Positions 17,312 through 40,943 of a stretch of 64,000 nt of DNA are shown one piece after another. Position 1 is the stretch's first letter. Every line of letters begins with the position of its first letter. The position numbers were made by a program, and so were the translations under genes. Source of the DNA: Escherichia coli (GTDB lineage: Bacteria; Pseudomonadota; Gammaproteobacteria; Enterobacterales; Enterobacteriaceae). Under the pieces are notes generated by a model, which worked only from the letters and a program-made list of their open reading frames with translations, was not told the origin of the DNA and did no database searches. Location: assembly GCF_041886205.1 (NCBI RefSeq), contig NZ_CP169029.1; one strand, 5' to 3'.

Positions 17312-17515
17312 CATGCCGGATACGGCCTACGGTTCGGCACAGACTTGTAGGCATGATAAGACGCGACAAGCGTCGCATCAGGCATTGTGCGCCAACTGCC
17401 GGATGCGGCGTGAACGCCTTATCCGGCCTACGGTTCGGCACAAACCTGTAGGCATGATAAGACGCGACAAGCGTCGCATCAGGCATTATGCGCCGACTGC
17501 CGGATGCTGCCTACG
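17312..17515. repeat. BIME: two near-identical tandem REP-containing units of about 90 bp
   Basis: Unit CGGCCTACGGTTCGGCACA-ACCTGTAGGCATGATAAGACGCGACAAGCGTCGCATCAGGCATT-TGCGCC-ACTGCCGGATGC occurs twice in tandem between the convergent yjjW and yjjV. Confidence 0.7.
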
Positions 17516-25308: not shown

Positions 25309-25395
25309 GCGAAGGTGGCGGAATTGGTAGACGCGCTAGCTTCAGGTGTTAGTGTCCTTACGGACGTGGGGGTTCAAGTCCCCCCCCTCGCACCA
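25309..25395 (+). tRNA. leuV: tRNA-Leu (anticodon CAG), 87 nt, ends CCA
   Basis: GCGAAGGTGGCGGAATTGGTAGACGCGCTAGCTTCAGGTGTTAGTGTCCTTACGGACGTGGGGGTTCAAGTCCCCCCCCTCGCACCA; type II tRNA with long variable arm. Gene name by operon order. Confidence 0.93.
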
Positions 25396-25423
25396 AAAAC
25401 CACGTTGATATTGCTCGCACTGG

Positions 25424-25510
25424 GCGAAGGTGGCGGAATTGGTAGACGCGCTAGCTTCAGGTGTTAGTGTTCTTACGGACGTGGGGGTTCAAGTCCCCCC
25501 CCTCGCACCA
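25424..25510 (+). tRNA. leuP: tRNA-Leu (anticodon CAG), 87 nt; one-base difference in variable arm (TCTTACGG vs CCTTACGG)
   Basis: Second tandem copy, identical except one variable-arm base. Confidence 0.9.
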
Positions 25511-25544
25511 AACGAGGCGATATCAAAAAAAGTAAGATGACTGT

Positions 25545-25631
25545 GCGAAGGTGGCGGAATTGGTAGACGCGCTAGCTTCAGGTGTTAGTGTCCTTACGGA
25601 CGTGGGGGTTCAAGTCCCCCCCCTCGCACCA
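25545..25631 (+). tRNA. leuQ: tRNA-Leu (anticodon CAG), 87 nt
   Basis: Third tandem copy identical to the first. Confidence 0.9.
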
Positions 25632-25669
25632 ATTATCTTTACTTCCTTTCTTGTTTCTTCCTTGATTTT

Positions 25670-38351: not shown

Positions 38352-38399
38352 TCTCCCTATGCCCGATAACATTTTGCTTATCGGGCATTTTTATGGCGA

Positions 38400-40064
38400 T
38401 TAAAACGTTTCCCAGTTCTCACCGCTATCTGCCACGGCCATTTTACGCGGCGCAGCTGGCATCACGGTTTTTACCACAGCCGATGTTTCACGCTGCTGTT
38501 GCTGCTGTTGCTGAATCCGGAACACTGCCACAGCTTCGGTCAGGCGACTGGCCTGCTCTTCCAGCGCGGCGGCGGCAGCGGCAGACTCTTCCACCAACGC
38601 GGCGTTCTGTTGAGTTACCCGGTCCATCTCAGCAACCGCTAAGCCAACCTGATCGATACCGCGGCTCTGCTCATCAGAAGCAGAAGCAATTTCGCCCATA
38701 ATGTCCGTCACGCGGGTCACGGCGCTGACAATCTCCGCCATTGTTTCCCCGGCGCTTTCGACCAGCGTAGAGCCAACATCCACTTTCCCCACCGAGTCTT
38801 CAATCAGGCTTTTAATTTCACGAGCCGCCTGGGCGCTGCGCTGGGCCAGATTACGCACTTCACCCGCGACCACCGCAAAACCGCGCCCTTGCTCACCCGC
38901 ACGCGCAGCCTCAACCGCCGCGTTCAAAGCCAGAATATTGGTCTGGAAGGCAATGCCGTCAATTACGCTGATAATATCGGCGATTTTCTGCGAACTGGTG
39001 GAAATATCGCGCATAGTCTGCACCACGTTATCTACCACTTTGCCGCCGCGTTGCGCCGTTTCAGAAGCACTTAACGCCAGGTGGCTGGCCTGGCGCGCAT
39101 TCTCGGCGTTCTGTTTCACCGTTGCGGTCAGTTGCTCCATGCTGGCTGCCGTCTCTTCCAGCGAAGCGGCCTGTTGCTCGGTGCGCGAAGAGAGATCGTT
39201 ATTGCCGGTGGCGATTTCGCTGGCACCGCTATAGATGGCATTGGCCCCGTTGCGCACATCACCGACGGTACGCATCAGCTCTCCCTGCATATGGCGCAAA
39301 CTCTCTGCCAGTTGCCCCATCTCATTAGAGCCATCCACCTCAATCGGTTTCACCAGATCGCCGCCTGCAATATGACGAATGCTGTCAATCAGGCGATTCA
39401 TTGGCGCTACCAGCGAGGCTTTAATACCGAACCAGACGGCGAAGATGACCGCCAGTACGACGATCATCACGCCCACCAGAATCCACATCGCCTGGCTGTA
39501 GGAGGCATTGTTATCGCTGACGGCGATATCATAGAGCCGATCGTTTTGCTCCATGTAAGCCACATACTGCTTCTCGAAACCGTCCTGATATCCCTGGGTC
39601 GGCTGATCAAAGAACTCGTTGATTTTGCCTGCACCTAACAGTTGGATCAGCTCCGCCAGCGCATTGTGATAAATATCGTAATTACGTTTGATCTCTGCCG
39701 CTGCGGCGGTGCTCTGACGCGGGTCACGCGGCAACGCTTCGTAATCCGCCCAGTTTTTTTCCGCCTGTTTCAGCGAAATACTGGCACTCTGCATCAGCTC
39801 AGCAACGGTTGAACCGCTACCAATATTATTCTGATCCATCATGTAGCGGATACCCGCGCGGTTGAGGGTGTTACGCGTCTGCAACAACGCGACCCAGCTG
39901 CCATTCAGCGTGGATTGCTGCTGGCGAATGGTTTGTAAAACAGTGAAATTTTCTTTGTCATTCTTTAAGGCATTAAAGAACAGACCGCCTGATGTCAGTT
40001 GTAAAAGGCCAAAAACGGCCAAAACCAGCAGTAAGCTGGTCACGATCTTGATACGTTTTAACAT
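38400..40064 (-). CDS. tsr: methyl-accepting chemotaxis protein I (serine chemoreceptor) Tsr
   Basis: 554-aa [37 protein letters not shown]... with HAMP and MCP signalling domain and C-terminal NWETF; carries a longer poly-Gln run (Q7) than I remember for K-12. Confidence 0.92.
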
Positions 40065-40122: not shown

Positions 40123-40292
40123 TAGGTAGCGACTTGAAACTGGTTAATTTTACCTCACTTTTTTAATTTTTGTTCAAAAATACAATAACCACTTATTGAT
40201 ACATTTTCTTTTCTTATTTTTTTCACACGAATTGTATCTATTTTGAACGAAATATTTTATAGAGTGTGGAATTTTAAGAAAGGACATCTGAA

Positions 40293-40835
40293 ATGTTAAA
40301 CCGTGACTTCGATCATCTCTCAACGCTATTACATCTCTTTTTTGAACGTGAGGATATTTGCCAAAAGCTTAATATTATTGACCAAAACAATATCACCGGT
40401 TGGGAAGTGTGGTTCCAGGTAGAATTTGCTAATATGCTCTGCTCAACAGACCATGAATGGTGGCGTGAACAGGCACTTTCCTGTGATATGCGCAAAAAAC
40501 CTGAACGCCCGACACTACGCACAGATTTCTTACTACGTAAAAAAGGCTGGGCGCAAGATAGCTATATCGCGCTTGAAATAAAACAAAACAGTGACGCGAC
40601 CAGTTGTGTTAAAAATATGATCGCAGACTTAGAAAAAAGCGCCAAAATCAAACGTTCAGAACTCGAGTTACGCAGTTTCTGGACCCTGGGTATCACCCCT
40701 GTGATAGACAGAGAAAGGCTGGATTCTCTCATCGATTGCTATTTAGATGAGAAATTTTATCTTACTAAATCTCGTAAAAAACACGTTTTACTTAAAGAAA
40801 TAAATAATACACCATATTCCTATATTGTTATTTAA
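40293..40835 (+). CDS. hypothetical 180-aa protein with PD-(D/E)xK-like motif (D..ExK: RTDFLL ... YIALEIKQ); AT-rich orphan
   Basis: Intact ATG ORF in an AT-rich (roughly 38-40% GC) segment between divergent tsr and btsT; no recognised family from memory. Confidence 0.4.
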   Translation: MLNRDFDHLSTLLHLFFEREDICQKLNIIDQNNITGWEVWFQVEFANMLCSTDHEWWREQALSCDMRKKPERPTLRTDFLLRKKGWAQDSYIALEIKQNSDATSCVKNMIADLEKSAKIKRSELELRSFWTLGITPVIDRERLDSLIDCYLDEKFYLTKSRKKHVLLKEINNTPYSYIVI

Positions 40836-40943
40836 TATTTATAGCATGAATATAATTTTTATATGAGTTACACAACCGAGGGCTAAAAATCGCTTCGGTT
40901 GTGATCATCATCACATAAATAACCTTCATAAACCTTGCTCAAA

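Follow-up and report, generated by a model that had tools for sequence, protein, structure and literature searches.

We found that the serine chemoreceptor gene tsr carries, at the junction between the last helix of the receptor's cytoplasmic bundle and its C-terminal tether, an in-frame 9-base repeat. We studied it in a 64,000-nucleotide stretch of Escherichia coli DNA (contig NZ_CP169029.1), referred to here as the window. Our reading, to which we give a probability of about 80%, is that the window holds the majority allele of ancestral length, encoding seven glutamines (Q7), that copy number changes by slippage or an equivalent process, and that the resulting variation is near-neutral. The polymorphism is a minor case of a familiar type of variation and its alleles are plain in public genomes; a full-text search of the literature found no description of a tsr repeat polymorphism.

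The gene occupies positions 38400..40064 on the minus strand, with its stop codon at 38400..38402, and encodes a receptor of 554 residues, as determined from the list of open reading frames, an NCBIfam match and the neighbouring genes. In a profile search the product scored 1223.7 bits against the Tsr equivalog PRK15041 (cut-off 947), with residues 1-554 aligned to positions 1-554 of a profile that is itself 554 positions long. The runner-up was the Tar profile (PRK15048) with a score of 751, under its cut-off of 900. According to the window open reading frames and annotation, tsr is flanked by lgoT and btsT, the same neighbours as in K-12 MG1655 and in strain 6EVA, and a tsr annotation lies under the match in 5,382 E. 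coli genomes. Judged from sequence, the gene is identified as Tsr by every test applied. The translated product ends in NWETF, a pentapeptide of the xWxxF type, and residue 547 is G in the window and E in K-12. Several minor observations concern the same gene. Residue 535 (codon 38460..38462) is Met in the window and in 6EVA, a strain from human faeces in Singapore, and Thr in all other alleles examined. The window and 6EVA are close but not identical, with 99.7% identity over 40250..40880. The last 241 nt of the window gene are matched at an identity of at least 99% in only 3 of the 5,382 genomes. The tsr 3' end occurs twice in two genomes, and three of its matches fall on records classed as plasmids. 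An antisense open reading frame on the plus strand, at 38393..38701, runs across the repeat and was taken to be a side effect of the GC-rich coding strand.

The glutamine repeat lies at 38493..38513 and reads CTGCTGTTGCTGCTGTTGCTG on the plus strand. On the gene strand (minus) it consists of a lead CAG (38511..38513) followed by two copies of CAACAGCAG, unit 1 at 38502..38510 and unit 2 at 38493..38501, as defined from the sequence, Tandem Repeats Finder (TRF) and codon comparison. The gene-strand codons CAG CAA CAG CAG CAA CAG CAG encode Q518-Q524 in the context FRI-Q7-RETS. An earlier note on this DNA had reported a glutamine run at 38490-38515 in a minus-strand tsr of 554 residues, within the tether ahead of the NWETF docking site; both the run and its placement are confirmed by the sequence, the open reading frame and the PRK15041 match, with the run at the very start of the tether. 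The best TRF description of the stretch has a period of 9, 2.4 copies, 100% matches and a score of 44, and a weaker description of the same stretch has a period of 3, 78% matches and a score of 30. CAA stands at every third codon, and the run is not one uninterrupted triplet. Because the window contains eight arrays with a score of at least 44, where 30 shuffles that preserve dinucleotides have 0.63 on average, the tsr repeat is non-random, yet not exceptional in the window. With at least two perfect tandem units and alleles that differ by whole units (TRF and the allele series described below), it is a short, in-frame coding VNTR, an ordinary repeat polymorphism in a presumably disordered linker.

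Comparison with other E. coli strains reveals a series of alleles built on the same unit. MG1655 and VTB96935v have CAG followed by one copy of CAACAGCAG (Q4; codons CAG CAA CAG CAG in MG1655), two copies are present in the window, 6EVA, O157:H7, CFT073 and 2013C-3492 (Q7), and three in NY1601 and N64 (Q10). Alleles with one, two, three and four units (Q4, Q7, Q10 and Q13) give products of 551, 554, 557 and 560 residues with tethers of 30, 33, 36 and 39 residues, respectively. The earlier note had given K-12 Tsr as a 551-residue protein with a shorter glutamine run, which is correct: MG1655 Tsr has 551 residues and Q4, and the rest of its tether is nearly identical to that of the window. The length polymorphism among E. 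coli strains that the note expected is likewise real, as K-12 and other strains do not share a single run length.

To count the alleles we used 5,426 complete E. coli genomes, of which 5,382 hold the tsr 3' end, and allele-specific megablast queries made up of the run with 30-nt flanks, at E-value limits that block alignments with a 9-nt gap. Q7 was assigned to 4,056 genomes (75%) and Q4 to 1,211 (22.5%), percentages that are not population frequencies, as K-12/B laboratory derivatives and clinical clones are over-represented among RefSeq complete genomes. Q10 was found in 68 genomes and Q13 in 3, and an imperfect form of Q7 length, QQEQQRQ, in 40, O6:H16 strains included. In total 5,378 of the 5,382 genomes were classified, leaving at most 4, and Q1, an allele with no full unit, was found by allele-specific megablast in none of the 5,426. 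These counts depend on E-value thresholds rather than on the read sequence of each genome, so that an allele 3 nt longer or shorter could have been assigned to the adjacent length class. The evidence that such alleles are absent therefore comes from the protein variants, from the metagenome contigs and from individual rows: each of the 183 genome rows among the matches listed spans the exact query length.

Metagenomes were scanned with the pattern GTGTTCCGGATT-N{9,39}-CGTGAAACATCGGC, in which the unit size is left free. The 120 contigs returned have spacers of 12 nt (29 contigs), 21 nt (86) and 30 nt (5), and no other spacer length within 9-39 nt occurs among them. The corresponding proportions, 24% Q4, 72% Q7 and 4% Q10, are similar to those of the RefSeq census, for a sample outside which CFT073-type alleles (GAAGCA) fall, because the pattern needed exact flanks. 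Among 133 Tsr protein variants retrieved there is no Q5, Q6, Q8 or Q9, and unusual total lengths are due to start calls that differ or to an alanine run elsewhere in the protein. All length alleles thus differ by 9-base units, not by 3. A CAG to CAT change (Gln to His) in the penultimate codon of the run, equivalent to 38496..38498, is common (loci L103-L194): 11 of the 120 metagenome contigs and several protein clusters have QQQQQHQ, and QQHQ and QQQQQQQQHQ (Q8HQ) also occur. The haplotype nearest to Q8HQ is a QQQQQHQ one, with 7 mismatches in 900 nt, and the QQHQ copy has a flanking background different from that of QQQQQHQ, with a TRAP transporter as neighbour. These His-marked alleles were considered as proof of slippage on one haplotype and serve this purpose only in part, given the different background of QQHQ; the His substitution may have arisen twice or been moved by recombination.

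Orthologues from other Enterobacteriaceae have overall lengths of 553-557 residues and an imperfect two-unit motif at the position of Q7. In Enterobacter cloacae the codons are CAG CAG GAA CAG CAG AAA GCG (QQEQQKA), and Leclercia has QQDQQKA and Citrobacter werkmanii QHDQQRA. QQAQQRQ is the motif of L035, a divergent Escherichia that is labelled as E. coli and shows 95% protein identity; L203 (P0120), an E. coli-like allele, has CAG CAA GAG CAG CAA CGC CAG, the form also present in the 40 complete genomes with an imperfect run. Imperfect units appear to hold their length: QQEQQRQ has the two-unit length in all 40 of these genomes, with at most 4 genomes of the census unclassified, and in the outgroup genera all imperfect runs are at or near two-unit length. 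Since the outgroups carry the imperfect two-unit motif, the 9-base periodicity would be older than E. coli and the seven-codon length ancestral. Fitch parsimony also gives a root state of 7. This polarity rests on L035, L203 and the other genera, with no E. albertii, E. fergusonii or Salmonella among the matches listed, and a protein search seeded with L035 gave only two further non-coli-type variants. Perfect units appear to be confined to E. coli proper, and on these sequences K-12 Q4 is best described as the loss of one unit, and Q10 and Q13 as gains. Alternatively, the ancestral imperfect form could have been shortened to Q4 by a deletion before a duplication produced Q7, a history that would explain the perfection of both units, with some Q4 allele as the intermediate.

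The same lengths are found on different chromosomal backgrounds. Downstream of the tsr stop codon (below 38400 in the window) lies either lgoT, as in the window and K-12, or a TRAP-transporter operon, as in CFT073, N64 and VTB96935v (loci L003, L005 and L007); the 3' end of tsr therefore borders a variable region. Copies adjacent to lgoT include MG1655 with Q4, O157 with Q7 and NY1601 with Q10, and copies adjacent to the TRAP transporter include VTB96935v with Q4, CFT073 with Q7 and N64 with Q10. For a tree we took 92 full-length tsr copies with the run masked, of which 76 have standard length and represent 68 haplotypes. The neighbour-joining tree, rooted on L035, is shallow, with few substitutions per branch. 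Fitch parsimony requires at least 10 length changes on the 68 haplotypes, compared to 15-24 with shuffled tips, and intragenic recombination could explain part of the scatter and inflate the count of 10. The resolved changes are 7 to 4 seven times, 7 to 10 twice and 4 to 7 once. Only 2 substitutions in 1,644 nt separate the closest pair of haplotypes with different alleles, Q4 and Q7, and none of the 68 masked haplotypes occurs with two length alleles, as would be expected of a hypermutable contingency locus if tsr were one. Length alleles have thus recurred on different haplotypes, both on the tree and on the lgoT and TRAP backgrounds, as in other VNTRs, and recombination may contribute to this. 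Repeat length is heritable over long periods, changing occasionally and mostly through loss.

The pattern of alleles suggests a mechanism in which slipped-strand mispairing between the perfect 9-base units, or an equivalent unequal exchange, would change the copy number. A shift by 3 bases would create mispairs, and a shift by 9 bases would pair perfectly over 12 bases. CAA at every third codon would in this way prevent slippage in the 3-base register, which would explain why only 9-base steps are seen. Contraction to one unit would remove the substrate of the repeat, making Q4 close to a dead end and accounting for why Q1 is never seen.

The tether extends from I517 to E549 (38418..38516, minus strand; 33 residues), as given by the coordinates of the open reading frame and by the tether start defined previously (PMC10561060). 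It is followed by the NWETF pentapeptide, residues 550-554 (38403..38417, minus strand; from the translation), the docking site of CheR and CheB (PMC10561060, PMC7390727). In an alignment of 26 sequences (A1), N550, W551, E552, T553 and F554 are invariant, and between F515 and N550 the only conserved column is K541. The run, residues 518-524, comes directly after F515-R516-I517. An AlphaFold2 model of the monomer based on the 26-sequence alignment has low confidence overall (mean pLDDT 69.8, pTM 0.37). Over residues 511-530 its pLDDT drops from about 70 to less than 50, it stays under 50 in residues 526-554, and the last helix is drawn, at low confidence, through the run to residue 528. The model thus places the run at the transition from helix to tether.

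What one unit should do to the reach of the adaptation enzymes can be estimated from previous work. The tether of K-12 Tsr starts at R516/I517 and has 30 residues (PMC10561060). When the Tar tether was set to 22, 29, 34 or 46 residues, the peak of the CheR distribution moved by 0.128 ± 0.048 nm per residue, or 0.233 ± 0.100 nm per residue in a second model, and the contour length of the tether is 0.36 nm per residue (PMC10561060). By these values one repeat unit should lengthen the contour by about 1.1 nm and move the peak of CheR reach by about 0.4-0.7 nm. The methylation sites of Tsr are about 1.05 nm apart along the helix (PMC10561060), and because the predicted shift is smaller than one heptad spacing between them, the polymorphism is probably neutral or has a weak influence on the kinetics of adaptation. 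According to one argument, Tsr has a shorter linker than Tar (30 compared to 34 residues) in keeping with the smaller mean distance to its methylation sites (PMC10561060). This comparison applies to the K-12 allele and not to the majority form of 33 residues. For the species, the K-12 tether is not typical, since the tether of three quarters of sequenced E. coli, at 33 residues, nearly reaches the 34 of Tar. As quantitative models of chemotactic adaptation rely on K-12 Tsr with its 30-residue tether, the allele series is a reason for caution. The natural Q4, Q7, Q10 and Q13 alleles also offer ready-made, minimally perturbing variants for applying models of tether length to Tsr.

Three other accounts of the origin of the allele pattern can be compared with slippage between 9-base units. 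That a few ancient alleles were scattered by homologous recombination at the tsr 3' end, and not produced by repeated slippage, is unlikely in our estimation. Such an account would fit the position of the tsr stop codon, which abuts a variable junction, and the QQHQ and QQQQQHQ alleles on different backgrounds. It would also fit the mosaic-like L203-type allele, in which 16 of the 46 differences fall in the last 111 nt, a distribution that suggests a recombination breakpoint within the tether-coding part. The tree was made from tsr itself, and imported alleles should carry their flanking sequence along; Q4 is nevertheless spread over about seven distinct local clades, a Q4 haplotype lies just the 2 substitutions mentioned above from a Q7 haplotype, and Q8HQ is closest to QQQQQHQ, which fits a gain on the latter background. 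The account given in the earlier note, a CAG/CAA trinucleotide microsatellite expanded in this strain from a normal, K-12-like short run, is very improbable. The run is indeed built of CAG and CAA codons only, TRF also reports the period-3 array, and the K-12 run is indeed shorter. However, the period-9 array is the perfect one and all alleles are 9 bases apart, with only 12, 21 and 30 nt among spacers that could have taken any length from 9 to 39 nt. Trinucleotide slippage is contradicted by the lack of any allele one codon longer or shorter in the 120 contigs, the 133 protein variants and the 183 listed rows. Nor is Q7 an expansion, because it is the allele of three quarters of the complete genomes and has the length of the outgroup sequences; K-12 would have the contracted form. 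Finally, short repeats can be mis-assembled, and nothing more specific than this speaks for a sequencing or assembly artefact in a low-complexity stretch. We give this practically no weight, as the same 21 nt are present in 4,056 complete genomes and in 73 independent metagenome contigs, and 21 nt is far below any read length.

A further alternative accepts the 9-base unit and concerns its consequence. Copy number could be an adaptive tuning knob, under selection through the reach of CheR and CheB along and between receptors, by which lineages would tune the speed or precision of their adaptation to serine. In Tar, a change of the tether from 22 to 46 residues has a measurable influence on how CheR is distributed and on how precise adaptation is (PMC10561060), and truncation of the linker is reported to impair receptor function (Li & Hazelbauer 2006, as cited in PMC10561060 and PMC7390727). 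Moreover, the tsr alleles have become frequent and are found repeatedly, on more than one background, and the closest genera keep a total protein length of 553-557 residues although the sequence of the linker diverges freely. On the other hand, the predicted change in reach is just 0.4-0.7 nm per unit, a contraction bias together with the absence of Q1 is what mutation alone would give, and with no flanking haplotype among 68 carrying two alleles the turnover is slow and not switch-like. Selection of this kind seems to us quite unlikely. In a related proposal, the repeat would have originated within E. coli out of an older, imperfect QQx-QQx form, and the quantised tether series would measurably tune CheR/CheB reach and, through it, how fast or how precisely cells adapt to serine; this is speculative and also unlikely. 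If it were true, the published geometry arguments based on a 30-residue linker would hold for a minority of the species only, and K-12, on which nearly all quantitative models of chemotaxis are based, would be atypically short.

The flexible C-terminal tethers of pentapeptide-bearing chemoreceptors were reportedly the subject of work by Bartelli and Hazelbauer in 2011. The window Tsr shares with K-12 Tsr the gene, the lgoT and btsT neighbours, the domain architecture and the NWETF end, and differs from it in having two units (Q7, 33 residues) where K-12 has one (Q4, 30 residues). In eukaryotic polyglutamine tracts, CAA interruptions stabilise CAG repeats. The tsr run resembles these tracts in being a glutamine run of mixed codons in which interruptions would suppress 3-base slippage, but it is only 4-13 glutamines long and its regularly placed CAA codons create a 9-base slipping unit. 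In the comparison with such tracts we saw no sign of instability within a lineage (two alleles in 0 of 68 haplotypes) or of an aggregation-related function. With bacterial coding VNTRs and contingency loci the tsr repeat has in common a perfect short tandem repeat within a gene, whose copy number varies from strain to strain and has changed repeatedly. Unlike contingency loci, it has 1-4 copies and a slow turnover. With a unit length divisible by three, it never turns the gene off, and there is no sign of phase variation, as all alleles keep the reading frame and the NWETF end. Like the tethers of the pentapeptide receptors Tar, Tsr and Tcp (Ortega & Krell 2020, PMC7390727), the segment is an unconserved linker of about 30-35 residues that ends in xWxxF and recruits CheR and CheB. 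The lengths in the literature vary between receptors and species, whereas tsr varies within one species, in 3-residue steps set by a DNA repeat.

The window tsr contains a second indel hotspot at about 38560..38610, an alanine run at residues ~487-503, where TRF reports 3.2 copies of GCGGCA at 38566..38584. The region lies, as we presume, between the methylation sites E493 and E502 (K-12 numbering). Among the 92 full-length copies, six metagenome contigs, mostly of the QQQQQHQ haplotype, have a 3-nt deletion (A6 to A5), and deletions of 33 nt and 49 nt also occur. A 6-nt deletion is present in L091 and also in protein P0093 of 552 residues, and the complete genome 2013C-3492 has a 33-nt tandem duplication giving a product of 565 residues that is annotated as intact. 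Indels in the methylation helix would be more surprising than indels in the tether. Between tsr and btsT, an open reading frame for 180 residues at 40293..40835 (plus strand) is called a hypothetical protein in 6EVA. It has no Pfam match and is present in 362 of 5,426 complete E. coli genomes, O55:H7 included, and it appears to be a small accessory insertion adjoining tsr.

Other repeats lie elsewhere in the window. An open reading frame at 58501..60768 (plus strand; 755 residues) has pentapeptide-repeat-like segments (…NFSGKVLTGVNFTGSDLSNA…) and two internal tandem arrays, one at 59997..60162 with 18 copies of a 9-base unit (PQIPEIP-type) and one at 60486..60675 with 7.9 copies of a 24-base unit (EKQANNST x7). 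These coding VNTRs are much larger than that of tsr. At 25309..25632 an array with a period of 121 bases and 2.7 copies, whose unit resembles a tRNA gene with its spacer, is probably a tandem tRNA-Leu cluster. An array at 17323..17507, with a period of 101 bases and 1.8 copies, resembles intergenic repeats of the REP/BIME type.
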